Positions 1 to 12,424 of a stretch of 12,424 bases of DNA are shown piece by piece. The stretch is from a virus. Lineage: Duplodnaviria > Heunggongvirae > Uroviricota > Caudoviricetes. A program made the translations under genes and the position numbers. The notes below the pieces were generated by a model. That model did not search any database and had not been told where the DNA came from. It saw only the letters and a list, made by a program, of their open reading frames with translations. Position 1 is the first letter of the stretch. The number at the start of each line of letters is the position of its first letter. The stretch spans positions 1 through 12,424 of IMG/VR virus record IMGVR_UViG_2737471831_000003. One strand, 5' to 3'.

Positions 1-1131
1 TCACCATGCTACTTTGCTCCATCCTTTGCCTCGGTCGTCATGATAACGATCGGTTTGTTGTTGTGTTTTGTGACCAAGTAGTTTTTGTGTATCTAACCCC
101 TGTTCTTTATACAGGCGTTCAGATAACGACCTTTGCTCATGGAATGTTGCAGGTGAACCTTTCCCCCAGTCAATTCCTGCTAAGTCCCTCGCTTTACTGA
201 AATTCATCGTCAATGTGTTAGATTTAACCTGTGTTCCACGTTCAGCCTGTGAAGTCGTACGGGAAAAATGTACAAGGTATGGGCTGACTGCATAGTCACG
301 GCAGCGGGCTACTACATCGCGTAAACTCCAGTTAATCGCATTGAGGTGAAGAGAAAGAGGAATTGCGATTTTGCTCCCGGTCTTTTCCTGAATGACGTGA
401 AGATGATCCTCCCAAATATCACTAAATTTCATTTTGGATATATCTCCCAAACGCTGCCCAGTGACTAAAGCTAGGAGCATGGCATTTCCCATGTAACGAT
501 GAGTGGCGTCTGCGATATCGAATATTTTTTGCCATTCTTCCAGGCTGAGGCGTTGACGGGTAATTTTTCTTCTTGGTTGTTTAGTGGCTAATGCTGGGTT
601 ATAGCCAGGCGGAACTTCGCCGTAATGCTGTGCTTCCTTAAACACATCGATCAATACAGACCTTACGACTTGGGCCATTCTCGGCTGTCCCGCAGAGATA
701 TACTCTTCAAGCAATTGTGCTATATCTCTGACATCAACGGCCGAGATCAACTTCATTCCTGCTCTTTCCCTGAGCAAGGATACTGGTTTGGCTTTCTGCT
801 TATAGGTGTTGAGTCTTATATCACCACTTTTCAGCCTATCGTCTTGGATAGCCTGGTAACGGTCTAACCATGTAGATGTTGTGATCGCTTTTCCTTTGCT
901 GGTTGCGATCCTGTCACTGATAGCCAGAATCTGCCGGGTTCTTTGTTCAGCCAGTCGAGTGTTGGCCTCAGTGGCAATAGCGATAGCTTCAGCTTCGTTT
1001 GTTCCCAAAGCATGGAATTTTCCTGTTACTGGATGCTTATACCGCCAATAGACTTTATTTACCTTTCGGCTATAAAGCGGATATAAGTTAGGGACTGAAA
1101 CATTATTCTTACGCGGTCTGGCTGCCATCAC
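1..1131 (-). CDS. int: Tyrosine recombinase, lambda Int-family phage integrase
   Basis: 376-aa ORF. By-eye alignment to lambda Int: N-terminal PNLY arm-binding region; catalytic region TFHEQRSLSERLY...LLGHK...RYHDDRG (lambda: TFHELRSLSARLY...LLGHK...QYRDDRG) with conserved His and Tyr-nucleophile context. Stop codon at positions 1-3; first codon GTG at 1131, ATG at 1128; 5' end overlaps xis by 23 nt as in lambda. Confidence 0.93.
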   Translation of the reverse strand: MMAARPRKNNVSVPNLYPLYSRKVNKVYWRYKHPVTGKFHALGTNEAEAIAIATEANTRLAEQRTRQILAISDRIATSKGKAITTSTWLDRYQAIQDDRLKSGDIRLNTYKQKAKPVSLLRERAGMKLISAVDVRDIAQLLEEYISAGQPRMAQVVRSVLIDVFKEAQHYGEVPPGYNPALATKQPRRKITRQRLSLEEWQKIFDIADATHRYMGNAMLLALVTGQRLGDISKMKFSDIWEDHLHVIQEKTGSKIAIPLSLHLNAINWSLRDVVARCRDYAVSPYLVHFSRTTSQAERGTQVKSNTLTMNFSKARDLAGIDWGKGSPATFHEQRSLSERLYKEQGLDTQKLLGHKTQQQTDRYHDDRGKGWSKVAW

Positions 1132-1354
1132 TCAAAATCCGTTGCAAAAGTAATGAGTCATTTTTCTTAATTACTGGTGTTACCAGCTCTCCAACTAACT
1201 CGGCGTCCTCACGCACTCGCCATAACCGGCCTTGTTTCATGGCCGGTGGACAAAATAAATTCTGCTTAGCATAACGACGCAATGTGGACACACTTGGAGG
1301 ATTACTTCTGTATTTTTCAGAAGCCCATTCTTCAAGAGTTAACATTTGAAGCAT
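1109..1354 (-). CDS. xis: Excisionase (lambda Xis-like)
   Basis: 81-aa ORF; LTLEEW...PPSVSTLRRYAKQNLFCPP.K.GR resembles lambda Xis LTLQEW...PRSLETVRRWVRECRIFPPPVKDGR. RBS AAGGTGA 6 nt upstream of ATG at 1354 (second in-frame ATG at 1345). Overlaps the int start. Confidence 0.85.
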   Translation of the reverse strand: MLQMLTLEEWASEKYRSNPPSVSTLRRYAKQNLFCPPAMKQGRLWRVREDAELVGELVTPVIKKNDSLLLQRILSDGSQTA

Positions 1355-1397
1355 ATGCGATCACCTTATTACTTCACTAACTGTTCAGTCTCTGCAT

Positions 1398-1700
1398 ATC
1401 GACCCTGCAAGGTCGATTAGTTTCTCCACAAAACAGAGAAGAGCACCTGTGGCCACAACTACCAGGATGGATTGGGTTATGAGCCCGTCGTCCGGTGATG
1501 CTCTTCTCTGTTTTGTAAAAAGGACGGTACCAGCCGGAAGCAAGGGTACAAGCTGGTACCGCCAGGACTACACACAGCATAAAGTTGTGGTTCCGGGGGC
1601 CTCCCGGTGCCTGGCGAAGGTTGCACACCAGGCGGGTGGGTATCCACAGAAGGTCGACTGTCAGCCTCAACCTTAACCCGCGTGCGCTGAGCCGCATTCA
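1398..1700. other. GC-rich, highly self-complementary intergenic element (candidate structured RNA or protein-binding site); function unknown
   Basis: Contains a perfect 18-bp inverted repeat, a perfect 9-bp inverted repeat (1526-1534 GGTACCAGC / 1552-1560 GCTGGTACC, 17-nt loop) and a 7-bp hairpin (1398-1404 ATCGACC / 1411-1417 GGTCGAT). ORFs called here translate to Arg/Pro/Gly/Cys-rich peptides typical of non-coding GC-rich sequence. Confidence 0.35.
1428..1516. repeat. Perfect 18-bp inverted repeat flanking a 53-bp spacer
   Basis: 1428-1445 ACAAAACAGAGAAGAGCA is the exact reverse complement of 1499-1516 TGCTCTTCTCTGTTTTGT; read directly from the sequence. Confidence 0.85.
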
Positions 1701-1816
1701 CCACAACGCTAAGGATTCTCTCTGGTTGAAAATACTTAGCTGTTATGTGCCTGTCTTTTCACCACTTCAGGCTCGGTGGTATCCTTTTAAGCCCGTATTC
1801 ATAAAAGGAAAATCAA

Positions 1817-2062
1817 ATGACTTTTGATGAAAAAGAACTTGATAATGCAATTAATAAAATCATCGTAACGTCGCTCTTTTCCTGTCTCAGCGACACTCAG
1901 CAGAAACAGTTCTACGAATCGGCTTTCAACATGATCGAGCGTTGTTGTTTCTGCGATGCCGACGAGTTACCTGAAAAAATCAGGAAACAGTTGGCTGATG
2001 CTCTTCGAGTGCGACTTTTTGACCAATTTTCTGAAATGTACTCTCCGAATTTGGACAAATAG
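1817..2062 (+). CDS. Hypothetical small protein (81 aa)
   Basis: ATG at 1817 preceded by AAGGA (1805-1809) at 7-nt spacing; helical-looking, non-repetitive translation; imperfect hairpin 2073-2096 shortly after the stop. The 3' end overlaps the convergent minus-strand ORF 1980-2255, so only one of the two may be real. Confidence 0.45.
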   Translation: MTFDEKELDNAINKIIVTSLFSCLSDTQQKQFYESAFNMIERCCFCDADELPEKIRKQLADALRVRLFDQFSEMYSPNLDK

Positions 2063-2255
2063 AAAAAGGCCATTTCCATTCAGGGTCTGATGGAAAGACT
2101 TCAGCCTGTTCCAAAGCACGGCGTAAAGAGAACACAACTCCAGCCATAATCTGATGTTTCCCATTGGTCCAGCTATCGCCGCTCTGAGCTACAGGAGCGG
2201 CTATGTCGTATGACCAAACGACTTCACCACTATTGTTTAAAATCTGGACTTTCAT
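1980..2255 (-). CDS. Hypothetical protein (91 aa), early-left operon position
   Basis: ATG at 2255 lies 9 nt downstream of the stop of the zinc-finger ORF (operon-like packing); GGAGG is 12 nt upstream, a long spacing. The C-terminal third overlaps the plus-strand ORF 1817-2062 and passes through the 2073-2096 hairpin. Confidence 0.35.
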   Translation of the reverse strand: MKVQILNNSGEVVWSYDIAAPVAQSGDSWTNGKHQIMAGVVFSLRRALEQAEVFPSDPEWKWPFSICPNSESTFQKIGQKVALEEHQPTVS

Positions 2256-2263
2256 TTTGTTCT

Positions 2264-2485
2264 TTAACCTCCAGATTTCCGCGCATCTAAAGGCGCATTC
2301 TCATTTGGTGTGAACTGAATAGTTGTGCTGATATTGATTAATGCCCCGACACACAAGACTACGCACTCAGAGCAGATAGCAACTTCATCTTTTCCGCCTT
2401 TGGCGATGATTTTTTTTGCCTGCAGCTCGTTTGCGCCACAAAACGAGCATGTGAAATAACGGTTCATTTGCGCTCTCTTACACAT
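2264..2485 (-). CDS. Small protein with ClpX-type C4 zinc-finger motif
   Basis: CSFCGANELQAKKIIAKGGKDEVAICSECVVLC matches the ClpX N-terminal zinc-binding domain pattern (CSFCGK...x18...ICDECVDLC). Likely start is the internal ATG at 2467 (67 aa; GAGAG 5 nt upstream) rather than 2485. Confidence 0.7.
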   Translation of the reverse strand: MCKRAQMNRYFTCSFCGANELQAKKIIAKGGKDEVAICSECVVLCVGALINISTTIQFTPNENAPLDARKSGG

Positions 2486-2564
2486 AGTATTTAACGAATC
2501 ATCTTGGACTTCATATGCCCCAGGCGGCTACTTCGTGGGCGTCCTGCCTGTTCATTGTTTTAAC

Positions 2565-2625
2565 ATCTTTAAGTTGTAATTTAGTTGTGGTTTTGAATAT
2601 TGTCAACAACTTTATGTGGTTTGAA
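2565..2625. promoter_or_regulatory. Putative OL operator/promoter cluster (AAGTTGT / ACAACTT heptamers)
   Basis: AAGTTGT at 2571-2577, AGTTGTG at 2583-2589 and ACAACTTTATG at 2606-2616; the same heptamers and the ACAACTTTATG motif recur in the cI-cro intergenic region. Lies between divergent genes (zinc-finger ORF leftward, TerB/BRCT ORF rightward). Confidence 0.4.
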
Positions 2626-2669
2626 CGAGTAGCCAAGGAGTGCAAGGATTATCAAAAAAAGGAGGTTGT

Positions 2670-3560
2670 ATGGAAGACGCGCTTTACGCTTTTAATTACA
2701 CACAGAACCGGGACAAGTTATTTGCTAACTTGATTAGCATAATTGATGGAATCATTGCAGATGGAGTTGTCCGTGAAGAGGAGGTTCTTTACTTAGATAC
2801 ATGGTTACTTGAAGCAAAGCAGATTATCAATAATGGAGTTATAAAAAGTCTATCAGCACGGGTGTCGGATATTCTTGCGGATGGAATAATCACATCAGAA
2901 GAACGTGATGACCTTAAAAATAGCCTTCTCCAAATACAGAGGGAAATTCTTGATATCCCTGAAATTGATTTTTACTCCAAGGATGTAGATGTCCATTTAC
3001 TTAATGGACTATGTAAAGGATTAATTGCTGATCGGAACTTAACTCAAGAAGAAATAAGATATCTTAATTGGTGGCTTGAGCAAAATGGAGCTTTGAAGAA
3101 CAACTACCCAGGAAAAAAACTTTATGCACTTGTAAAGGAAATTCTTAAAGATGGGGTTATTACTGAAGATGAGAGTTTAACTCTACATAAGGCATTAGTA
3201 GACTTCACAGGATGTGACTTGGAAAGTGGGGTGGTGGATGGTTTGGCGACCAGGCTGCCTATTGATGTAGGGGCTTCGATAGAGTTAGAGGGTAAAACCT
3301 ATTGTCTTACAGGCACTTTTGTTGCAGGAAAGAGAGCCGTAGTTGAAAATTTGATTAAAAATGCTGGTGGGAACATCAGTAGTGGAATTACTCAAAAGTT
3401 GGATTTTTTAGTAATTGGGACGCTTTCCTCCCGTGATTGGAAATTCTCAAGTCACGGAAGGAAGATCGAAAAAGCTATATCTTATAGGGATGATAATGGT
3501 GCAAAACTTAAAATTATTTCTGAAGAAATGCTTTTCGATGCATTACCAAGTTCGCGATGA
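2670..3560 (+). CDS. Protein with four TerB-like helical repeats and a C-terminal BRCT domain (296 aa)
   Basis: ATG at 2670 preceded by AGGAGG (2660-2665); in-frame GTG at 2640. Four repeats of the form h-ADG-h-h-T/R-x-E-E (IADGVVREEEVLYL, LADGIITSEERDDL, IADRNLTQEEIRYL, LKDGVITEDESLTL) resemble TerB/DjlA-N motifs. C-terminus GKTYCLTGTFVAGKRAVVENLIKNAGGNISSGITQKLDFLVIG...KLKIISEEMLFDAL matches the BRCT pattern of NAD-ligase C-termini. AT-rich; 3' end overlaps the cI 3' end by 18 nt. Confidence 0.8.
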   Translation: MEDALYAFNYTQNRDKLFANLISIIDGIIADGVVREEEVLYLDTWLLEAKQIINNGVIKSLSARVSDILADGIITSEERDDLKNSLLQIQREILDIPEIDFYSKDVDVHLLNGLCKGLIADRNLTQEEIRYLNWWLEQNGALKNNYPGKKLYALVKEILKDGVITEDESLTLHKALVDFTGCDLESGVVDGLATRLPIDVGASIELEGKTYCLTGTFVAGKRAVVENLIKNAGGNISSGITQKLDFLVIGTLSSRDWKFSSHGRKIEKAISYRDDNGAKLKIISEEMLFDALPSSR

Positions 3561-4229
3561 CCAGAATACCCTACCTATAACATGAATTCTGGCTCGTCTA
3601 TCTTCAAAGGTGAGTATTTCATCTGGGTACTCATCTTTGTTGAAGCTTCTAAGAATCAAGCCACCGTCAGGTAAGTTGATAAGTATTTTAACCCTTAGCA
3701 ATACACCATCTCGTACGGCATAAAGATCGCCATCACGAATAGGAACGGTTTGAGAAATATCAACGGCAACAAGATCTCCATTATTGAGAACCGGTAATAA
3801 ACTGTTCCCCCATATTTTTACGATCTTGGCATTAGATGCACATACGCCAGATTTTCTCAAATCTGCTCTTCTTAACGGAAACCAGTCAATAGCTGATTCA
3901 ACTATTTCAGCCAGACATCCGTTACCTGCCGATAACTCGACATCTAAAACAGGAATGTTTACGAAAATATCGGGGTCTAATGCGGTGCTTTCTGCTTCTT
4001 TTACAACAAGATCAGGTATGGATGCGTTGTCTTCAATACCAAGTTGTAACCACTTTTGTGATACACCTAAAACTTTTGCAATTTCTTTAATTTTGCGCGG
4101 TTGTAGAGTTTCGCCATTCTCTATTTTGGCTACAGATTGTTGTGAAAGTCCAATTTTTTCAGCTAGTTGAGCTTGGCTCATGCCAGCTTTCTCTCTACCT
4201 ATCTTTAATCGTTCTGCCAGTGTTTTCAC
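3543..4229 (-). CDS. cI: Prophage repressor, cI/LexA-type (XRE HTH + S24 peptidase domain)
   Basis: 228 aa; N-terminal HTH (MSQAQLAEKIGLSQQSVAKIENGE); C-terminal S24-like autocleavage domain (GNSLLP...GDLVAVD...LLRVKIL). GTG start at 4229 with GAGGG 7 nt upstream; divergent from the cro-like gene. Confidence 0.9.
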   Translation of the reverse strand: MKTLAERLKIGREKAGMSQAQLAEKIGLSQQSVAKIENGETLQPRKIKEIAKVLGVSQKWLQLGIEDNASIPDLVVKEAESTALDPDIFVNIPVLDVELSAGNGCLAEIVESAIDWFPLRRADLRKSGVCASNAKIVKIWGNSLLPVLNNGDLVAVDISQTVPIRDGDLYAVRDGVLLRVKILINLPDGGLILRSFNKDEYPDEILTFEDRRARIHVIGRVFWSSRTW

Positions 4230-4254
4230 AACATATCCCTCTCTTTTTTGATGA

Positions 4255-4345
4255 GGTTACAACTTTATGTTTTAGCTTTCCAACACCTAAAAGTTGTGAT
4301 AAAAGTTGTTAATGTTGTATTCTTGCAACTCGTAACAACTTAACT
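4255..4345. promoter_or_regulatory. Putative OR operator/promoter region (pRM/pR) between cI and cro
   Basis: ACAACTT at 4259-4265 and 4335-4341; AAGTTGT at 4291-4297 and 4303-4309; these are the same half-sites as in the 2565-2625 cluster. Sits in the 135-bp divergent intergenic region. Confidence 0.5.
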
Positions 4346-4364
4346 ACCTAAAAAGGAGAAAGCT

Positions 4365-4613
4365 ATGACACCTGAGCAATTAGCCTTATCGGAGGCAATC
4401 GCTCTGGCTGGTGGTCAATCAGAATTGGCTCGGAAGCTCACAGCCAGCAGCGGTCATTTAGTAAAGCAACAACATGTCTGGAACTGGTTGAACAGAGAAA
4501 AGCGTCCCCCTGCAAAGCTCTCGATATTCATTGAAAAGACCACTGGCATATCAAAAGAAAAATTACGTCCAGATATTTTTCAAAAGATTAAAGATTCATC
4601 AGATGAAAAGTAA
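4365..4613 (+). CDS. Cro/YdaS-like small HTH regulator
   Basis: 82 aa; AGGAG at 4354-4358, 6 nt before the ATG; GGQSELARKL...V.NWL.......P......IEK.TG.SKEKLRPDIF pattern as in YdaS/Cro-type proteins; first gene rightward of the repressor. Confidence 0.8.
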   Translation: MTPEQLALSEAIALAGGQSELARKLTASSGHLVKQQHVWNWLNREKRPPAKLSIFIEKTTGISKEKLRPDIFQKIKDSSDEK

Positions 4614-4635
4614 CCACAGTTTTAAGGAGATAGCC

Positions 4636-5187
4636 GTGGGTAAGCATCACTGGAAAGTAGAAAAACAGCCTAAGTGGTACGTGAAAGCTGTCAGAAAAAC
4701 TATCGCAGCGTTGCCGGGGGGTTACGCTGAAGCTGCTGACTGGCTGGATGTAACAGAGAACGCATTATTTAACCGCCTTCGTGCCGATGGCGATCAGATT
4801 TTCCCGCTGGGATGGGCAATGATTTTGCAACGTGCTGGTGGAACTCACTTCATTGCTGACGCTGTGGCGCAGTCTGCAAATGGCGTCTTTGTGTCTCTTC
4901 CTGATATCGAGGATGTGGACAACGCCGATATCAACCAACGCCTGCTGGAGGTCATTGAACAGATCGGCAGTTATTCAAAACAGATTCGTTCAGCAATTGA
5001 AGACGGTGTAGTTGAACCGCATGAGAAGACAGCAATTAACGATGAGCTGTACCTCTCAATTTCGAAGCTGCAGGAGCATGCAGCACTGGTCTACAAAATC
5101 TTTTGCGTTTCAGAAAGTAGTGACGCCCGCGAGTGTGCAGCTCCGGGCGCCGTGGCGTGTCGTGACTGTGGAGAAACTAACGCATGA
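4636..5187 (+). CDS. Hypothetical regulatory protein in the cII position, possibly YdaT-family
   Basis: Strong RBS AAGGAG (4624-4629) 6 nt before in-frame GTG at 4636; alternative ATG at 4603 overlaps the cro stop. The family assignment is from memory of YdaS-YdaT pairs and is tentative. Confidence 0.55.
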
Positions 5188-5522
5188 ACAGTTTAACAAC
5201 ACACTACCGTCGCTCGCAACTGATTGCGCTTCCGGTTCCGGGTGGAAAAGCGAAGGTGGAGTATTGCTATGCAGTGAATGTACCAGGTGACAGGGAAATT
5301 GTAACCCACAGCTTTGCAGAGTGGGCTGTGGGTGATTTCAACCGGCAGAAGGAGACAGTCCTTTGCGACAAGTTAACCGCTGGTTCAAAGATCACTACGG
5401 AGTGCCCGTCAGAGTCATTCGTTGGGAACCGGAAACACAACGGGTTATCTACCTCCGCGAAGGTTATGAGCATGAATGCTTCAGTCCGCTCGAACAGTTT
5501 CGTCGTAAATTCAGGGAAATAG
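5184..5522 (+). CDS. Hypothetical protein (112 aa, ATG-initiated); C-terminal half doubtful
   Basis: ATG at 5184 overlaps the upstream stop (ATGA coupling). The N-terminal ~55 aa look protein-like, but the C-terminal half is Ser/Asn-rich and low-complexity, while an alternative frame over the same DNA looks more protein-like. Confidence 0.3.
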
Positions 5523-5542
5523 AGGTCGGTCATGAGCACTAA
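5363..5542 (+). CDS. Alternative small ORF (59 aa, TTG start), frame-2
   Basis: AAGGAG at 5349-5354 lies 8 nt before TTG at 5363. Translation [59 protein letters not shown] is charged and non-repetitive; stop at 5540-5542 overlaps the start of the replication gene. Confidence 0.35.
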
Positions 5543-6473
5543 ATTAACCGGCTATGTATGGGATGGTTGCGCTGCATCAGGCATGAAGTTATCCAGCGTG
5601 GCAATTATGGCCCGCCTGGCTGATTTCAGTAATGACGAAGGTGTGTGCTGGCCATCAATTGAAACCATTGCCCGTCAGATTGGCGCGGGGATGAGTACCG
5701 TCAGAACGGCTATCGCACGGCTGGAAGCAGAAGGCTGGTTAACGCGTAAGGCGCGTCGCCAGGGTAACCGCAATGCGTCGAATGTTTATCAGCTTAACGT
5801 TGCGAAGCTTCAGGCAGCGGCATTTTCTCAACTGTCAGATTCTGACCCGTCAAAATCTGACGCATCAAAATCTGACCCGTCAAAATTTGATGCGTCGAAA
5901 TCTGGGAAAAAAGCGGGTTTTCACCCGTCAGAATCTGGTGGGGATCCGTCAGTAAAATCAAAACATGATCCGTCAGATAAAAAACCTTCTCGTCCGGACG
6001 CTTCGCAACCGGACACGCAGAAGGCTGAACAGGATTTTTTAACTCGCCATCCTGATGCGGTTGTATTCAGCCCTAAAAAGCGCCAGTGGGGAACGCAGGA
6101 TGATTTGACCTGCGCACAGTGGCTCTGGAAAAAAATCATCGCCCTGTACGAGCAGGCCGCCGAATGTGACGGCGAGGTGGTTCGTCCCAAAGAACCGAAC
6201 TGGACAGCCTGGGCAAACGAAATTCGCCTGATGTGTGTGCAGGATGGTCGTACTCACAAACAAATCTGCGAGATGTACAGCCGCGTCAGCCGCGATCCGT
6301 TCTGGTGCCGTAACGTGCTCAGCCCGTCGAAGCTGCGGGAAAAATGGGATGAGCTTTCCCTGCGCTTATCGCCGTCCGTCAGCACGTACACCGAAAAACG
6401 CGAAGACCCGTACTTCAAAGCCAGTTACGACAACGTGGACTACAGCCAGATCCCGGCAGGATTCAGGGGGTGA
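5532..6473 (+). CDS. Phage replication initiation protein (N-terminal winged-HTH, low-complexity linker, DnaT-like C-terminus)
   Basis: 313 aa; GAGGT 5 nt before the ATG. N-terminal HTH typical of phage replication initiators (SIETIARQIGAGMSTVRTAIARLEAEGWL); central SDPSK-type linker encoded by the iteron array; C-terminus ends ...NWTAWANEIRL...QIPAGFRG, resembling (from memory) the C-terminal domain of primosomal protein DnaT (...IPPGFRG). Confidence 0.8.
   Translation: MSTKLTGYVWDGCAASGMKLSSVAIMARLADFSNDEGVCWPSIETIARQIGAGMSTVRTAIARLEAEGWLTRKARRQGNRNASNVYQLNVAKLQAAAFSQLSDSDPSKSDASKSDPSKFDASKSGKKAGFHPSESGGDPSVKSKHDPSDKKPSRPDASQPDTQKAEQDFLTRHPDAVVFSPKKRQWGTQDDLTCAQWLWKKIIALYEQAAECDGEVVRPKEPNWTAWANEIRLMCVQDGRTHKQICEMYSRVSRDPFWCRNVLSPSKLREKWDELSLRLSPSVSTYTEKREDPYFKASYDNVDYSQIPAGFRG
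5831..5985. repeat. Iteron-like direct repeat array (15-bp period), candidate replication origin
   Basis: Four consecutive 15-bp units at 5842-5901 (CTGACCCGTCAAAAT, CTGACGCATCAAAAT, CTGACCCGTCAAAAT, TTGATGCGTCGAAAT), plus degenerate CCGTCAG-containing copies to about 5980 and an A-rich stretch (5976-5985). Confidence 0.6.
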
Positions 6474-6475
6474 TC

Positions 6476-6964
6476 ATGAGTCTTTTGAATGAAGTTCAGA
6501 AATTCATTGAAGCCCATCCGGGGTGTACTTCCGGAGACATTGCGGATGCTTTTGCAGGTTATTCACGGCAGCGCGTTCTGCAGTCTGCAAGCAAGTTACG
6601 TCAGAGTGGGCGTGTGGCTCACCGTTGTGAAGGAGATACACGCAGACATTTCCCGCGCCTGACTGAGAGAGCGCAGGAGCCGGAACCACAACCAGTTCGT
6701 GAAACCAGACCTGTGCGCAATTTCTATGTCGGCACTAACGATCCCCGGGTGATTTTGTGCCTGACCCGCCAGGCTGAAGAACTGGAGTCAAGGGGCTTAT
6801 ACCGTCGTGCTGCAACCGTGTGGATGGCGGCATTCCGTGAAAGCCACTCCCAGCCAGAACGAAACAATTTTCTGGCGCGTCGTGAGCAGTGCTTACAGAA
6901 AAGCAGCAAGCGCGCTGCATCGGGTGAAGAGTGGTATCTGTCAGGGAATTACGTGGGGGCGTAA
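6476..6964 (+). CDS. PerC-like transcriptional regulator domain protein
   Basis: ATG at 6476 with GGGGG 5 nt upstream (GTG at 6470 also in frame). C-terminal AEELESRGLYRRAATVWMAAF resembles the PerC/Pch motif (A..LE.RGLWRRAA..W), recalled from memory. Confidence 0.55.
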   Translation: MSLLNEVQKFIEAHPGCTSGDIADAFAGYSRQRVLQSASKLRQSGRVAHRCEGDTRRHFPRLTERAQEPEPQPVRETRPVRNFYVGTNDPRVILCLTRQAEELESRGLYRRAATVWMAAFRESHSQPERNNFLARREQCLQKSSKRAASGEEWYLSGNYVGA

Positions 6965-7290
6965 TGACGACGTTAACTCAATGCCAGCAGCAGGTGCTGG
7001 ATATGCTGATTTCTTATCAGAAAGAGCGTGGCTTTCCGCCAACCAATCAGGAGGTGGCAACCATGCTGGGATACCGTTCGGTGAATGCAGCGGTGGAGCA
7101 TCTTCGCGCACTGGAGAAAAAAGGCGTCATCACGATAAAGCGTGGCGTGGCACGGGGGATAACGCTTCATACCGCTGTGAAGGACGACGACAGCGAGGCG
7201 GTCGGGATTATCCGCGCACTGCTTGCCGGTGAGGAAAACGCCAGGCTGCGTGCAGCCCACTGGTTACATGAGAGGGGCCTGAAAGTATGA
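6964..7290 (+). CDS. LexA N-terminal DNA-binding-domain-only protein (no S24 peptidase domain)
   Basis: ATG at 6964 overlaps the upstream stop (TAATG). QQQVLDMLISYQKERGFPPTNQEVATMLGYRSVNAAVEHLRALEKKGVITIKRGVARGITL aligns closely with E. coli LexA residues ~8-70 ([61 protein letters not shown]). The protein ends after ~108 aa with no catalytic Ser/Lys domain. Confidence 0.8.
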   Translation: MTTLTQCQQQVLDMLISYQKERGFPPTNQEVATMLGYRSVNAAVEHLRALEKKGVITIKRGVARGITLHTAVKDDDSEAVGIIRALLAGEENARLRAAHWLHERGLKV

Positions 7291-7676
7291 AGCTGATTCT
7301 GCCTTTTCCGCCCAGCGTGAACACGTACTGGCGACACCCCAACAAAGGGGCGTTTGCTGGTAAGAGCCTGATAAGCGCGGCGGGGCGCAAATTCCAGAGC
7401 GCGGCGTGTGCAGCAATAGTTGAGCAGTTACGTCGTCTGCCAAAACCAACGTCGGCACCTGCTTCAGTGGAGATCGTGTTGTTTCCACCGGATAACCGGA
7501 TCCGCGATCTGGACAACTATAACAAGGCGCTGTTTGACGCCCTGACCCACGCGGGTGTGTGGGAGGACGACAGTCAGGTGAAAAGAATGCTGGTGGAGTG
7601 GGGGCCGGTTATCCCGGAAGGGAAGGTCGAGATCACTATCAGTAAGTACGAGAAAACGGCGGGTGCAGCCGCCTGA
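7287..7676 (+). CDS. rusA: Holliday-junction resolvase RusA
   Basis: 129 aa; LPFPPSVNTYWR and RDLDNYNKALFDALTHAGVWEDDSQV match the RusA motifs ([38 protein letters not shown]). ATG overlaps the upstream stop (ATGA). Confidence 0.92.
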   Translation: MKLILPFPPSVNTYWRHPNKGAFAGKSLISAAGRKFQSAACAAIVEQLRRLPKPTSAPASVEIVLFPPDNRIRDLDNYNKALFDALTHAGVWEDDSQVKRMLVEWGPVIPEGKVEITISKYEKTAGAAA

Positions 7677-7695
7677 TTAAGAGGAGAAACGAAGT

Positions 7696-8493
7696 ATGAA
7701 TAATCTGATGGTCATTGATGGTATTGAAGTTCGTCGTGATGCTTATGGGCGTTACAGCCTGAACGATCTGCACAGGGCTGCCGGTTCTCAGGATAAGCAT
7801 AAGCCTGCATTTTGGCTCCGCAATGAGCAAACCGAACGTTTAATAAGCGAGTTGCAGATTTGCAACTCGGTCAATATAGAGCCAGTTAACGTTATTCGTG
7901 GCGGAAATAACCAGGGGACGTATGTCTGCAAAGAACTGGTGTATGCCTATGCAATGTGGATCAGTCCGTCATTCCATCTGAAGGTGATCCGTACTTTCGA
8001 TATGGTAACCAGCGCACCGGAAAAATTATCCGGGCAGGCTGCTGACAAGATGCAGGCTGGTGTGATTCTGCTGGACTTTATGCGTCGGGAGTTAAACCTG
8101 TCTAACTCATCTGTGCTTGGGGCCTGTCAGAAACTCCAGGAGGCTGTTGGTTTACCGAATCTGGCACCGCGCTATGCCATTGATGCCCCTGCTGATGCAC
8201 ACGATGGCTCAAGTCGCCCGACACTGTCACTGAGTGCACTGCTGAAACAGTATGGTATCCGCCTTACGGCTAATCAGGCATATCACCAGATGGTGAAACT
8301 GGGGATCGTCGAACAGCGCGAACGATACAGCCGTACCGCGATTAATAACATCAAAAAATTCTGGTCGCTGACGGCGAAAGGCTGCATGTTCGGCAAGAAC
8401 ATCACCAGTCCGGCAAATCCGCGTGAGACGCAGCCGCATTTCTTCGAATCCCGATTCCCTGAGCTGTTAAAGCTGCTCGATACCGTTCATTGA
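7696..8493 (+). CDS. KilA-N domain protein
   Basis: 265 aa; GAGGAG RBS at 7681-7686. N-terminal ~100 aa (IDGIEVRRDAYGRYSLNDLHRAAG...PAFWLRNEQT...YVCKELVYAYAMWISPSFHLKVIRTF) fit the KilA-N DNA-binding domain pattern. Confidence 0.8.
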   Translation: MNNLMVIDGIEVRRDAYGRYSLNDLHRAAGSQDKHKPAFWLRNEQTERLISELQICNSVNIEPVNVIRGGNNQGTYVCKELVYAYAMWISPSFHLKVIRTFDMVTSAPEKLSGQAADKMQAGVILLDFMRRELNLSNSSVLGACQKLQEAVGLPNLAPRYAIDAPADAHDGSSRPTLSLSALLKQYGIRLTANQAYHQMVKLGIVEQRERYSRTAINNIKKFWSLTAKGCMFGKNITSPANPRETQPHFFESRFPELLKLLDTVH

Positions 8494-8494
8494 G

Positions 8495-9490
8495 GTGACC
8501 GTGAGAGCGCTACTGACCCCTGAGATTGCCCCGCGTATGGGGATCGTATTGTTCAGACCCGGTTCAGAGCTGATGCCCCTGTTTATGCAGGGGCGTGTCC
8601 TGCTGGAGCCTGAGCCGGAGCGTTATTCATCTTTCGCCAGTGGTGCCGTTCCGGCGGCATCACAACCGCTGGCGGATGATCCTGCCGTTCGGGCCGTGTT
8701 CCGCAATGAGGCAGTGATCCGTCGTGCTGGTGGCGTGGAATGTCTTGAAAGCTGGTTACTTCGTGAAAAAGGCTGCCAGTGGCCTCATTCCGACTGGCAC
8801 AGCGAGAACATGACAACAATGCGACACGCTCCGGGCGCAATCCGTCTGTGCTGGCACTGCGATAACCAGCTGCGCGATCAGTTCACGGAACGGCTGGAAT
8901 CAATGGCAACGGATAACTGTGCCCGCTGGGTGTTGTCTGTTGTGCGTCGGGATCTCGGTTTTGATGATAGTCACGTTGTGACAATGCCGGAACTGTGCTG
9001 GTGGCTGATTCGTAATGACCTGGCGGATGCCTTACCGGAAAGTGCAGCCCGTAAGGCACTGAGATTACCGAGGCCTGTTGTGCCGTCTGTCACCCGGGAA
9101 AGTGACCTTGTGCCTTCGGTTCCTGCCACCAGCATCATCCAGGATAAAGCGAAAAAGGTGCTGGCGCTGAAAGTGGATCCGGAGTCGCCGGAGTCTTTTA
9201 TGTTACGCCCAAAACGTCGCCGCTGGGTTAATGAAAAGTACACGCGCTGGGTTAAGACACAGCCGTGTGCATGTTGTGGAAAGCCTGCTGATGATCCCCA
9301 CCACCTGATAGGTCACGGTCAGGGTGGAATGGGAACAAAAGCGCATGACCTCTTTGTGTTGCCTTTGTGCAGAAAGCATCACGACGAGCTGCATGCGGAT
9401 ACCGTGGCATTTGAAGAGAAGTATGGCTCCCAGCTGGAGCTGATATTTCGTTTTATCGATCGTGCGCTGGCAATTGGCGTGCTGGCCTGA
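8495..9490 (+). CDS. DUF968-like phage protein with C-terminal Cys/His-rich (HNH-like) motif
   Basis: 331 aa; likely start GTG at 8501 (GAGG 5 nt upstream) rather than 8495. C-terminal CACCGKPADDPHHLIGHGQGG...HDLFVLPLCRKHHDELH is a zinc-binding/HNH-like signature; the position after rusA/KilA-N matches DUF968 genes in Qin-type prophages (from memory). Confidence 0.65.
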   Translation: MTVRALLTPEIAPRMGIVLFRPGSELMPLFMQGRVLLEPEPERYSSFASGAVPAASQPLADDPAVRAVFRNEAVIRRAGGVECLESWLLREKGCQWPHSDWHSENMTTMRHAPGAIRLCWHCDNQLRDQFTERLESMATDNCARWVLSVVRRDLGFDDSHVVTMPELCWWLIRNDLADALPESAARKALRLPRPVVPSVTRESDLVPSVPATSIIQDKAKKVLALKVDPESPESFMLRPKRRRWVNEKYTRWVKTQPCACCGKPADDPHHLIGHGQGGMGTKAHDLFVLPLCRKHHDELHADTVAFEEKYGSQLELIFRFIDRALAIGVLA

Positions 9491-9507
9491 TTTTGTGGAG
9501 AAAGTTG

Positions 9508-9855
9508 ATGCGTGATATGTATGAAGTATTGGACCGCTGGGGAGCATGGGCTGCAGCAGATAACAGTGGCGTGGACTGGCAGCCGATAGCTGCAGGCTTC
9601 AAGGGGCTTTTACCTCATGGCAAAAAGTCCCGGATTCAGTGTGATGATGACGAAGGCATTATGATAGACAGTTGTGTGGCTCGGTTGAGAAAGTATAAAC
9701 CAGAGGAATATGAGCTAATCATAGCTCACTTTGTCATTGGTATCTCATTACGCACTATTGCCAAGAAGAGAAGATGTTCAGATGGCACAGTTAGGAAAAA
9801 ATTGCAGACTGCCTTGGGGTTTGTTGAAGGATGTATTTGTTTGATTGAGTTCTAA
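9508..9855 (+). CDS. Q: Late-gene antiterminator Q (phage 82/QuuD-like family)
   Basis: ATG at 9508 with GGAG 7 nt upstream (an upstream TTG at 9493 is also in frame). VLDRWGAWAA...DWQPIAAGFKGLL...SRIQCDDDEGIM resembles E. coli QuuD as recalled; Cys pairs consistent with a Q zinc finger; last early-right gene before the lysis cassette. Confidence 0.75.
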   Translation: MRDMYEVLDRWGAWAAADNSGVDWQPIAAGFKGLLPHGKKSRIQCDDDEGIMIDSCVARLRKYKPEEYELIIAHFVIGISLRTIAKKRRCSDGTVRKKLQTALGFVEGCICLIEF

Positions 9856-9883
9856 AAAGAATGAGGCGTAAGCCTCATTCTTT
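9856..9883. terminator. Bidirectional intrinsic terminator between Q and the convergent membrane-protein gene
   Basis: Perfect 12-bp stem (9856-9867 AAAGAATGAGGC / 9872-9883 GCCTCATTCTTT) with GTAA loop, A-run on one side and T-run on the other. The minus-strand gene's stop codon (9875-9877) lies in the stem. Confidence 0.75.
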
Positions 9884-10444
9884 ATCTTTAATTATAAGTT
9901 TCGATTTTTCATCATGCATTTTGTCTATCATAAAATACATACCTAATGCCGTTGTGTATATAATGTTGCATATGGTACTTAAATAAATAAACAAAAGTAA
10001 TGATTTCACTAGTGGATATGATGAAAGGTGTAATTCCTTGATGCTTGCACTGGTTAGTTGAAGTGCTCCTCCAACGAAATACAGCGCGATGCTCATAAAC
10101 GCTAAATAACCAAATAGATAAGTGAGGAATTTACGCCTTGTAAGTTTTTTACCTTTTAATACCGGAGGTATGCCATGCATAACTTCATCCATACCATCCT
10201 TACTGAAGGTTGCAACTGCAGCCATAGATGCAATGTAAAAACCAGATAGTATTTGAAGTATCCCGTTTACTAAAGACACAAGACTATCCTTCCCGAGAAG
10301 TGAGATGGTTTTCGGTAAGTAATAGATGGATAAAGTAATAATTGCAGCAGTGAAAATGGGTAAAACCCAGTCAAAAAATCGCTTCTCAGGATGCTTTATG
10401 CGTAGGTAGTCTATAGGTGTAAAAACCTTAGATAAAACATACAT
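9875..10444 (-). CDS. Small integral membrane protein, 4 predicted TM helices (189 aa)
   Basis: Start ATG at 10444 with AGGAGG 5 nt upstream (the longer ORF to 10537 would overlap the upstream gene). Four hydrophobic segments: FFDWVLPIFTAAIITLSIYYL, LVSLVNGILQILSGFYIASMAAVATF, FLTYLFGYLAFMSIALYFVGGAL, LVKSLLLFIYLSTICNIIYTTALGMYFMI. AT-rich. Confidence 0.75.
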   Translation of the reverse strand: MYVLSKVFTPIDYLRIKHPEKRFFDWVLPIFTAAIITLSIYYLPKTISLLGKDSLVSLVNGILQILSGFYIASMAAVATFSKDGMDEVMHGIPPVLKGKKLTRRKFLTYLFGYLAFMSIALYFVGGALQLTSASIKELHLSSYPLVKSLLLFIYLSTICNIIYTTALGMYFMIDKMHDEKSKLIIKDKE

Positions 10445-10476
10445 ATATGCCTCCTTTTGACAGGTTTTCCATGCCT

Positions 10477-11412
10477 TCACTTTAACATAAAGTTTTGCAT
10501 TTTTGCGAGAAGTTCTTCGTGAAATGCTGTTTGGCAAACGGCAATTGTTGATGCCAACACTGCTTTTTCACGTTGTGCCAATTGTGCTGTTGCGAGTTCC
10601 TGTAAGCTCATTTCTTTTCCGATGGAAACAAGATCTGATGAAACGCGTTTATTTTTGTCTTTATAAGAAATTCTTAACATTGTATACTTTCTACCACGAA
10701 GTTTGTCATATGCAGACTTAATCGCCTTAATTGCACCCTCTCCGCGACGTATTTTTGTTGATAGCTTTAGTGTTTCTTCTTCAACCATTACTGTGCCATC
10801 ATCATCTAAAGAGTTATCTTTAAAGCGACGAGTAGCAGTAAGTCCACATAAATAACCAGTGGATAGAGATTGCTCAAGTGTTGTTGCAGCCAAAAAATCA
10901 ATGTCGAAAATAGGTCTGCACTTAAGTTCTTTTTTCCCTCCTGAACGGATAAAGGAAAAATTATTTTCTCGCAGGAAATAAGTTAAAGCTTGGGCTAATA
11001 AACCTCTGGTAATGCCCGGAACTTCTTCTAAAATTGCCTCATAACAATCTTGGAATGATGAGTCGCTCGGTCTTTTTTTGATAAGCACATGAGCAGAGTA
11101 CCCCATACCTTCATCATTTTGCTTTTTCTCAATTCTGGTTTCACCAGTTTTTATGTTGGAAAAGGCGGGATCAGAAGCATCTTTATTTATATATTGAAAA
11201 AGCAATTTCAGGTAATTTTCATCGTCTTTTATGGATAGCAATCTTATGACAGAACGTCCTTTGTTTAATTCGTAAACAGCTTCTCCTTTGTTATAGCGAT
11301 TTTTTAAAACAGGAATACAGTTTACTAAAGGCATGTCAGGTGCGTCATTAGGATACTTCTTTAAAGTAACCTGGCATTTGATCATGAAACGTTCATTATC
11401 TCCCAAGAGCAT
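10477..11412 (-). CDS. Hypothetical soluble protein (311 aa) with a possible Pol-beta-type nucleotidyltransferase signature
   Basis: ATG at 11412 with AAGGA 6 nt upstream; AT-rich. IRSGGKKELKCRPIFDIDFL (residues ~156-175) fits the hG[GS]-x9-13-DhDh pattern; an acidic cluster SLDDDG lies ~30 residues downstream. No family recognised with confidence. Confidence 0.7.
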   Translation of the reverse strand: MLLGDNERFMIKCQVTLKKYPNDAPDMPLVNCIPVLKNRYNKGEAVYELNKGRSVIRLLSIKDDENYLKLLFQYINKDASDPAFSNIKTGETRIEKKQNDEGMGYSAHVLIKKRPSDSSFQDCYEAILEEVPGITRGLLAQALTYFLRENNFSFIRSGGKKELKCRPIFDIDFLAATTLEQSLSTGYLCGLTATRRFKDNSLDDDGTVMVEEETLKLSTKIRRGEGAIKAIKSAYDKLRGRKYTMLRISYKDKNKRVSSDLVSIGKEMSLQELATAQLAQREKAVLASTIAVCQTAFHEELLAKMQNFMLK

Positions 11413-11472
11413 ATCTGTTCCTTATACGAGCACTAATACTGATTGCTGTTTTTAGTTCAGCAGAACCAAAGG

Positions 11473-11501
11473 TTAACTGATTGTGCTTGATAGTATATAT
11501 T
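11473..11501 (+). promoter_or_regulatory. Putative late promoter (pR'-like)
   Basis: TTAACT (11473-11478), 17-bp spacer, TATATT (11496-11501), in an AT-rich region about 240 bp upstream of the holin and about 70 bp upstream of a plus-strand terminator hairpin. Sequence-only prediction. Confidence 0.3.
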
Positions 11502-11566
11502 TTTCACTAACGCGTACGCAAAAAGTATTGTATCGTGTTAAGAGTGGTTACTTCGCCACACAACTT

Positions 11567-11596
11567 AAACCCGCCGCTGAGCGGGTTTTGTCGTTT
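11567..11596 (+). terminator. Putative tR'-like intrinsic terminator upstream of the lysis genes
   Basis: 8-bp stem (11567-11574 AAACCCGC / 11581-11588 GCGGGTTT) with 6-nt loop CGCTGA, followed by TGTCGTTTCT. Confidence 0.5.
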
Positions 11597-11740
11597 CTGG
11601 GCCTAGGGATTCGTTGGGCCTGGTCTATCCCGCAGTTATCCATTGGCTCGGCTTCTTTGACGTTTCCGCTTCTGATTTGCGGTACATGATGTTCCCTCAA
11701 TTTGCACCTGCTGTATCAGCGAGGTGAGAGATAACTACAA

Positions 11741-12067
11741 ATGCCTCATAACCCAAATACCTGGCTGGAGTTGGTCCAGAGCTGGTGGCGTGGAGACACA
11801 CCGCTGGGCGCAGTGATTATGTCGATTGTTATGGCTGGTTTACGTATTGCCTATTTTGGCGGTGGTGGCGGCTGGAAGCGAAAAACACTCGAAATTCTAC
11901 TCTGTGGCGCTCTGACGCTGACTTTTGCATCCGCTCTTGAGTATGTCGGATGGCCTAAATCACTATCTGTTGCCATTGGTGGTGGGGTGGGGCTGATCGG
12001 TGTCGATGCTATTCGTGGGGCTGCAATGAGAGTAATCGGTAACAAGTTTGGTGGCTCTAAGGAGTAA
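11741..12067 (+). CDS. S: Holin, lambda S-like (class I)
   Basis: 108 aa with three hydrophobic segments and a charged C-terminus, similar in size and hydropathy to lambda S; stop 3 nt before the endolysin start. Confidence 0.8.
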   Translation: MPHNPNTWLELVQSWWRGDTPLGAVIMSIVMAGLRIAYFGGGGGWKRKTLEILLCGALTLTFASALEYVGWPKSLSVAIGGGVGLIGVDAIRGAAMRVIGNKFGGSKE

Positions 12068-12070
12068 TTT

Positions 12071-12424
12071 ATGCAGGTACTAAATTCCCAGCGTAAAGCT
12101 TTCCTCGATATGGTGGCATGGTCAGAAGGAACGGATAACGGGCGACAACCGACACGTAACCACGGTTATGATGTTATTGTTGGCGGCGAACTGTTTACTG
12201 ATTACTCCGATCACCCTCGCAAACTTGTCACGCTAAACCCCAAACTCAAATCAACAGCCGCCGGGCGTTATCAGCTTCTTTCACGCTGGTGGGATGCTTA
12301 CCGTAACCAGCTTGGTTTGAAAGACTTTTCCCCCAAAAGCCAGGACGCAGTGGCATTGCAGCAGATTAAAGAGCGTGGTGCTTTACCGATGATTGATCGC
12401 GGTGATATGATCCTACCCACGTAA
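12071..12424 (+). pseudogene. R: Endolysin R (lambda-type lytic transglycosylase), truncated after ~112 codons
   Basis: AAGGAG 6 nt before the ATG. The first ~112 residues are near-identical to lambda R as recalled (NSQRKAFLDM.AWSEGTDNGRQ.TRNHGYDVIVGGELFTDYSDHPRKLVTLNPKLKST.AGRYQLLSRWWDAYR.QLGLKDFSPKSQDAVALQQIKERGALPMIDRGD); the frame then reads MILPT-stop, encoded by IS-end sequence. Lambda R is 158 aa. Confidence 0.85.
12408..12424. mobile_element. Terminal inverted repeat of an IS3-family element (IS3 IRR-like) at the window edge
   Basis: TGATCCTACCCACGTAA matches the outer end of the IS3 right inverted repeat as recalled (TGATCCTACCCACGTAATATGGACACAGGCC...). The element body lies beyond the window. 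Confidence 0.6.

Follow-up and report, generated by a model that had tools for sequence, protein, structure and literature searches.

Does the array of short tandem repeats inside the replication initiator gene of a lambdoid prophage serve as a replication origin, or does it merely encode a repetitive stretch of protein? This question is raised by the virus record IMGVR_UViG_2737471831_000003 of IMG/VR, of which positions 1–12,424 were analyzed (this whole stretch of 12,424 nucleotides is called the window, and all coordinates refer to it). The initial annotation, made from the letters alone, had noticed four consecutive 15-bp direct repeats in the initiator gene (5532–6473) and likened them to the origin inside gene O of phage lambda. 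We conclude that positions 5834–5985 probably comprise the replication origin of the prophage together with an initiator-binding array, both lying inside the prophage's own initiator gene (probability roughly 0.8). An origin is the most likely function because the repeats are real and are held by selection on the DNA itself.

The repeat array and selection on its DNA

Tandem Repeats Finder detected a 15-bp period at 5841–5904 (4.3 copies, 81% matches), and a 30-bp reading of the same array gave 88% matches. With up to three mismatches, the consensus TCTGACCCGTCAAAA was found at five sites, all of them within 5841–5933, against 0.36 expected, and a count of five was reached in none of 200 shuffles. 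Thus, the four repeats first described are real and non-random, and they can now be refined to five contiguous units and a sixth, separate one. When both strands are read, a near-palindrome of 13 bp, GTCAGAWTCTGAC, emerges as the natural unit, with copies at 5834 (perfect), 5849, 5864, 5879 and 5894 (degenerate) and then, after a gap, at 5927; the array starts at 5834. Position weights over the loci described below place the best-kept part of the unit in the 11-mer TCARAWTCTGA, with the flanks (G)...(C).

The degenerate copies containing CCGTCAG that had been reported next to the array were also seen, at 5925, 5946 and 5970. In total the window holds nine copies of this heptamer against 0.94 expected. 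Those at 5672 and 5698, in the part of the gene encoding the N-terminal domain (N-domain), were considered as extra sites and judged incidental because the matching codons (columns 47–49) are not conserved synonymously in relatives.

The elements of the candidate origin are as follows.

5834–5906, no strand: iteron array with five 15-bp units in direct succession, each made up of a near-palindrome of 13 bp, GTCARAWTCTGAC, and a spacer of 2 bp
5907–5915, no strand: short, variable spacer between array and core
5916–5985, no strand: conserved DNA core of about 66–70 bp, family consensus GGTTTTGACCCGTCAGAATCTGGNGGGGATCCGTCAGTAAAWTCAAAACAAGATCCATCAGATAAAAAA
5927–5939, no strand: sixth, lone palindrome copy GTCAGAATCTGGT, inside the core, with 2 mismatches
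5943–5981, no strand: two GATC-headed 15-mers, GATCCGTCAGTAAAA (5943–5957) and GATCCGTCAGATAAA (5967–5981), 24 bp apart
5953–5985, no strand: AT-rich block of roughly 35 bp, candidate DNA-unwinding element

To follow the repeats in homologous initiator genes, we fetched 80 loci from different species via the N-domain and added four phage relatives, which gave 84 loci; a non-redundant set of 65 loci had N-domain DNA less than 93% identical (mean 68%). The motif, with at most two mismatches, is kept in the linker between the initiator's two domains, in strict 15-bp phase, in 81 of the 84 loci, and it is almost absent from the rest of these 6.3-kb loci. The number of iterons varies among homologues in whole units: contiguous runs comprise 3–10 units (mode 5), and the array of Escherichia coli 52148 is longer than that of the window by exactly 45 bp, or three units. 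The sixth palindrome typically lies 33 or 48 bp from the array.

The period equals five codons in the frame of 5532–6473, and the array encodes repeats of the type (S)DxSK (SDPSK SDASK SDPSK FDASK), as the initial annotation had stated. The whole linker is about 60 residues long, of SDxSK type and rich in S, D, P and K. It could be argued from this composition, from the period of exactly five codons and from the single frame shared by all copies that the repeats are a mere low-complexity disordered linker, generated by five-codon slippage, whose DNA has no function of its own; a low-confidence AlphaFold2 model, in which amino acids (aa) 102–161 have no predicted secondary structure, would agree with such a linker.

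The choice of codons contradicts this explanation. Units were picked by their peptide pattern alone, so that codon choice was unbiased. The first Ser of the unit is encoded by TCA in 165 of 174 cases, the second by TCT in 153 of 174, and Asp by GAC in 136 of 165, whereas in the rest of the same genes TCA accounts for 13–21% and TCT for about 9% of Ser codons and the two Asp codons are used about 50:50. Up to six different codons occur at invariant Ser columns of the N-domain in the same loci. The positions that do vary are the 2-bp spacers and some first codon positions, not wobble bases.

The same was seen in the core, which was aligned in 61 loci on a conserved SGGDP peptide. Of the 20 codons numbered −6 to +13 relative to the anchor serine (5916–5975), 13 carry ≥1.5 bits of information at the third position; in the same loci, 45 conserved columns of the N-domain average 0.56 bits and none of them exceeds 1.21. 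The spacer at 5907–5915 (codons −8 and −7) carries low information at every codon position and differs among close relatives. Synonymous sites that are randomised in the N-domain are near-invariant here, and therefore the pattern follows a DNA motif and not the genetic code: selection acts on the DNA of the repeats and core rather than on the protein. The synonymous positions are fixed in loci that are saturated at their other synonymous sites, the residue encoded by the spacer varies freely, a peptide repeat has no need of units that are DNA palindromes, and the Dam sites of the core are held via an invariant GAT codon; we regard the linker explanation as very improbable. The low complexity of the linker is itself explained, much as had been proposed, because S, D/K/E, S and D are dictated by the DNA motif, only the residue encoded by the spacer being free.

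The two GATC sites of the core, at 5943 and 5967, are conserved Dam sites. The Asp codon is GAT in 61 of 61 and 53 of 53 loci, respectively, and at least two GATC sites are present in 54 of 61 loci. The A-rich stretch of the initial annotation corresponds to the AT-rich block at 5953–5985. It is the least stable 30–40 bp of the gene, and its AT peak is conserved (72%, standard deviation 0.04, in the 61 loci, between +20 and +50 nt relative to the SGGDP anchor); its richness is modest, with a maximum of 73% AT in 30 nt. GATC-headed AT-rich repeats beside initiator sites are reminiscent of the unwinding elements of oriC and P1 oriR and may have a comparable role.

Conservation could also act at the level of RNA, for example through an mRNA structure that governs translation or stability of the initiator message. 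The segment 5825–5990 does fold at −47.1 kcal/mol, against −32.8 kcal/mol for shuffles (z = −3.7). However, such an excess is expected of any set of inverted repeats, palindromes of 11–13 nt would yield hairpins of 4–5 bp at most, and the loci show invariant bases instead of compensatory changes. In addition, conserved GATC is a signal for methylation of DNA, and an RNA structure leaves the covariation of the repeats with the DNA-binding domain, described below, without explanation. We therefore give an RNA role hardly any weight.

It should be mentioned that at 5914–5927, between array and core, the minus strand contains a hairpin resembling a terminator, with a T-run (CGGGTGAAAACCCG CTTTTTT). 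Neither Klebsiella phage 1 LV-2017 nor phiNP has conserved it, and it was dropped as a meaningful element. No sigma-70-like promoter was found in 5300–6700.

The initiator and exchange of its N-domain together with the repeats

The gene that contains the array and its parts are listed here.

5532–6473, + strand: replication initiator gene, O-like, 313 aa (open reading frame list, translation and phrog_391 match)
5532–5831, + strand: N-terminal winged-helix domain, aa 1–100, presumed to bind the iterons (Pfam HTH_36)
5986–6010, no strand: mosaic junction, right boundary of the exchangeable module of N-domain and origin (comparisons with mEp460 and phiNP)
6015–6362, + strand: C-terminal domain (C-domain), aa 162–277, homologous to the C-terminal domain of lambda O

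The product matches phrog_391, "replication initiation O-like", from end to end (E = 8.6e-136). Shigella phages SfIV and SfII and E. coli phage Kati have a replication gene whose DNA is 98–99% identical to this one, which is also the same gene as the truncated yfdO of prophage CPS-53 in E. coli K-12. The N-domain contains Pfam HTH_36 at aa 23–70 (E = 4.3e-11), with weak matches to DnaD_N and RP-C, and 51 of its residues are invariant among five phage homologues. BLASTP gave no meaningful alignment between this domain and the N-terminus of lambda O, Pfam assigning it to HTH_36 instead. The C-domain, in contrast, is shared with lambda O (37.9% identity and E = 8e-18 in tblastn; E = 6e-26 in pairwise BLASTP). 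The five contiguous units and the isolated copy fall at aa 101–136, upstream of this domain, as the lambda iterons do, which supports both the origin and the lambda-like arrangement proposed at the outset. An AlphaFold2 model of the initiator, computed from the single sequence, did not have the quality needed for a fold search (mean predicted local distance difference test score 44.5), and a sequence search of the PDB returned only weak MarR-type matches (E about 0.008).

With about 82% identity, the extreme tail of the initiator (6372–6470, aa 281–313, ...YDNVDYSQIPAGFRG) recurs in replication proteins of cdtI and Stx2c phages, and relatives with another type of C-domain have it too (VDYSLPENSGFR; phiNP and Klebsiella phage 1 LV-2017). 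This tail may serve to dock a host factor, or it may mark a mosaic junction.

Comparison of the relatives revealed that an identical N-domain and array type is joined to at least three unrelated types of C-domain. These types were assigned by reference-based typing, which replaced a single-linkage clustering that had lumped all C-terminal parts together. The genes that follow the fusions vary as well and encode methyltransferases, YfdN-like, DnaC-like or lambda-P-like proteins or a primase-helicase. The reverse combination is found in phage mEp460, whose C-domain is virtually identical to that of the window from aa 152 while its N-domain is different and is accompanied by its own 23-bp repeats and an A/T-rich tail. 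Its DNA is about 97% identical to the window rightwards from about 5986 and unrelated leftwards, so that the junction falls directly after the AT-rich block. Phage phiNP is homologous on the left and diverges past about 6010.

Changes in the N-domain are matched by changes in the repeats. The two most divergent members (loci L081 and L084) have KTTVSAAI, with an insertion, in the region of the recognition helix in place of STVRTAI, and their palindrome is changed to GGGGTCAA-N3-TTGACCCC; the GATC-headed block GATCCGTCAG is retained. Distant HTH_36 initiators (Stx2a_F403, RothC, Vibrio D67 and S1249) each have a private set of three or four repeats with dyad symmetry, which follows the winged helix directly. 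The same tool recovers the four annotated iterons of lambda. Judged by these sequence comparisons, the repeats and the N-domain are one specificity unit and are exchanged together.

The SrsR boxes of prophage CPS-53

In the CPS-53 prophage of E. coli K-12 the initiator gene has lost its first ~78 codons and is a pseudogene (yfdO, annotated with 122 aa), and the full array and core are kept. Among our loci the truncated gene is represented by L092 (1502–2209; a derivative of E. coli K-12 DH1) and L094. Because the N-terminal codons are lost, the intact array sits in what older annotations treat as the spacer between yfdP and yfdO. It is at this spacer that the host LysR-type regulator SrsR (YgfI) gave its strongest peak in genomic systematic evolution of ligands by exponential enrichment (SELEX; Kobayashi et al., 2022, PMC9181523). 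The DNase I footprint of SrsR covers 66 bp with four boxes, TCAaATTTTGa, TCAGATTTTGa (twice) and TCAGAgTcTGa, and was obtained with 10–40 µM protein. Deletion or overexpression of srsR changed yfdO mRNA about 10-fold and affected mRNA levels of yfdONMLK. In that work the array was treated as an operator in an intergenic promoter region, and neither iterons nor an origin were mentioned (PMC9181523).

The four SrsR boxes (Table 1 of PMC9181523), in the order given above, are the reverse complement of units 5879, 5864, 5849 and 5834. Four tandem 11-mers of the form TCAGATTTTGC/a within about 66 bp are present in the reverse complement of 5834–5891, and the K-12 copy differs from the window by one base across the four units. 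The published consensus of the SrsR box thus appears to have been derived from orphan phage iterons. We take the footprint to prove that the array binds protein well, as a lattice of sites accessible to sequence-specific binding in vitro.

One may ask whether the array is primarily a cluster of SrsR sites that activates the downstream genes (yfdONMLK in K-12), which would make it an element of transcriptional control and not an origin. The SELEX peak, the footprint, the changes in yfdO mRNA and the identity of boxes and units speak for this explanation. On the other hand, the array travels with the phage N-domain, not with whatever genes lie downstream: mEp460 shares the C-domain and the downstream genes with the window and has other repeats, while the array is conserved in many genera with different C-domains and different following genes. 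The footprint required the 10–40 µM protein given above, and a study of YgfI by chromatin immunoprecipitation with exonuclease treatment reports dhaKLM and is silent on the array site. In K-12 the cognate N-domain is deleted, and therefore the site is an orphan there. We consider a primary role as an SrsR operator improbable. The roles of SrsR site and origin are not mutually exclusive, and the iterons might also be a genuine SrsR target in vivo, either gating the firing of the origin in intact phages or, as orphan iterons, exapted as an enhancer in CPS-53; this possibility is rather unlikely in our opinion. The SrsR protein itself has no sequence similarity to the phage N-domain.

If the iterons are indeed such a target, a stationary-phase transcription factor of the host would act on origin iterons that belong to a prophage family carried by more than one third of complete E. 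coli genomes. To recast the SrsR box as orphan phage iterons also bears on the reading of the SrsR regulon and of its consensus motif.

The proposed origin, its setting and its relatives

How the candidate origin may work can be suggested from its structure. Dimers of the N-terminal HTH_36 domain would occupy the five or six 13-bp palindromes, 15 bp apart, and form a nucleoprotein complex similar to the O-some. With this spacing neighbours would lie about 154 degrees apart on the helix, and the 30-bp super-period given by Tandem Repeats Finder may mean that sites are paired. The complex would destabilise the adjoining core, with its two GATC-headed 15-mers and AT-rich block, so that the latter opens; the lambda-O-like C-domain would then recruit the host helicase in a module that has no loader gene. 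Dam methylation or SeqA may modulate firing. Owing to the five-codon period, units could be gained or lost without a frameshift. The system would be unusual in combining a tightly packed lattice of palindromic 15-bp iterons with an initiator that lacks its own helicase loader.

Several points weigh against an origin at this site. The 15-bp spacing is unlike the 20–24 bp of every other iteron set examined, and the only protein with demonstrated binding to the array is the host LysR regulator (PMC9181523). No P-like, DnaC-like or DnaB-like gene was found in the replication module or in the window, and no DnaA box (TTWTNCACA) occurs anywhere in the window. The AT-rich block belongs only to the top 5–8% of the whole window for instability, and its maximum of 73% AT compares with 83% in lambda ori. 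Finally, the covariation of N-domain and motif rests on few independent events, and the presence of all copies in one frame leaves room for some contribution from selection on the peptide.

The surroundings of the initiator gene are those of a lambdoid early region, with genes for a CI-like repressor, a CII/YmfL-like protein, the initiator, YfdN/PerC, a protein with the LexA N-domain, RusA, KilA-N and DUF968. The gene directly after the initiator (6470–6964) is YfdN-like, with a winged helix and PerC. Among the 65 non-redundant relatives, few have an adjoining P-like, DnaC-like or primase-helicase gene and most have none. In many relatives a gene for an N6-adenine (Dam-type) methyltransferase lies directly after the initiator gene, for example in loci L001 (3451–4260), L002 (3370–4251) and L003 (3977–4690), and K-12 (L092, 2700–2966) keeps a remnant, yfdM. 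The conserved GATC sites and these neighbouring genes suggest that methylation is linked to this origin.

Some other features of the window should be mentioned. Between yfdN and rusA, an open reading frame of 119 aa (6931–7290) encodes the LexA DNA-binding domain alone (PF01726, E = 3.7e-19), without an S24 peptidase, and its product could be a non-cleavable mimic of LexA. An open reading frame of 306 aa (2640–3560) with a C-terminal BRCT domain (PF00533, E = 1.4e-6) adjoins the CI-like repressor gene (3543–4229, minus strand). At the 5' end of the KilA-N gene there is a small tandem repeat of ~10 bp (7706–7727, 2.3 copies, TGATGGTAT).

The module is widespread. A 301-bp segment around the array was found in 2086 of 5426 complete E. 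coli genomes, and the array is also present in prophages of Proteus, Providencia, Yersinia, Erwinia, Pantoea and other genera of Enterobacterales. The same iterons occur in sequences attributed to hosts outside this order, namely Elizabethkingia phage EKP1 (L004), Vagococcus sp. (L014), Chryseobacterium sp. (L036), Martelella alba (L041) and Pseudomonas lundensis (L075). Their N-domains are 61–88% identical to enterobacterial ones, and the host labels are likely due to contamination or mis-assignment.

Circular E. coli "plasmids" of phage size also carry the module: CP085522.1 (41.5 kb), NZ_CP081716.1 (37.7 kb), and NZ_CP081704.1 and NZ_CP081794.1 (about 43.7 kb each). The two that were inspected, CP085522.1 and NZ_CP081716.1, are typed as non-mobilizable only, neither a replicon nor a relaxase type being assigned. 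These records probably represent phage genomes caught as circles in assemblies; the missing replicon types are compatible with autonomous phage circles and are not evidence of origin function.

None of the phage records (SfIV, SfII and Kati) has an annotated origin, the literature searched contains no description of an origin of this type, and the paper on the SfIV genome does not discuss one. The array and core thus provide a precise candidate origin for the replication module of the SfII/SfIV/CPS-53 type, common in E. coli and Enterobacterales, and origins of this kind can be annotated with GTCARAWTCTGAC, recurring every 15 bp, as a marker. The locus is also a clean natural case of DNA-binding sites that dictate a protein linker, and of modular exchange of an N-domain together with its origin. 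The principle of an origin within a gene is textbook knowledge; the coincidence with SrsR is the sole surprising element.

Initiator-binding repeats inside the initiator's own coding sequence are known from P22 gene 18, SPP1 gene 38 and rep of the lactococcal phage TP901-1, whose initiators and repeats are unrelated or only distantly related to those described here. An iteron origin of the plasmid type (RepA/pi class), with 17–22-bp iterons at ~22-bp spacing and DnaA boxes, does not agree with the 15-bp period and the lack of TTWTNCACA. The SrsR box array of CPS-53 is the same DNA, which lies inside an intact gene in the window and belongs in K-12 to a gene that has lost its N-terminal codons. 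Closer in type are the HTH_36/O-like initiators of Stx2a_F403, Klebsiella phage RothC, Vibrio phage D67, Aggregatibacter phage S1249 and mEp460, which have 3–5 dyad-symmetric repeats right after the winged helix, often with a GTCA...TGAC-like core. These sets differ in having their own sequences and a spacing of 21–24 bp, and several have a neighbouring gene for a P-like loader.

The main model for comparison is ori-lambda, together with the six-iteron origins of Stx phages 933W and P27 (background in PMC7466680). The origin proposed here differs from ori-lambda in its N-domain, which is of HTH_36 type and not a lambda O N-terminus, and in its 13-bp repeats at a contiguous 15-bp period, those of the lambda type being 18–19 bp long at 20–24 bp. 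Its AT-rich tract is shorter, weaker and headed by two GATC sites, and it has no P gene. In other respects the two agree well. Each initiator gene contains centrally placed dyad-symmetric direct repeats with AT-rich DNA behind them, which in the prophage is a candidate unwinding region; the homologous C-domain follows shortly downstream of the repeats, and the linker between the domains is encoded by the origin region (PMC7466680). As in lambda and the Stx phages, the number of iterons varies among phages and adds residues to the protein, and, as in lambda, specificity resides in a unit of N-domain and iterons that is exchanged as a whole.

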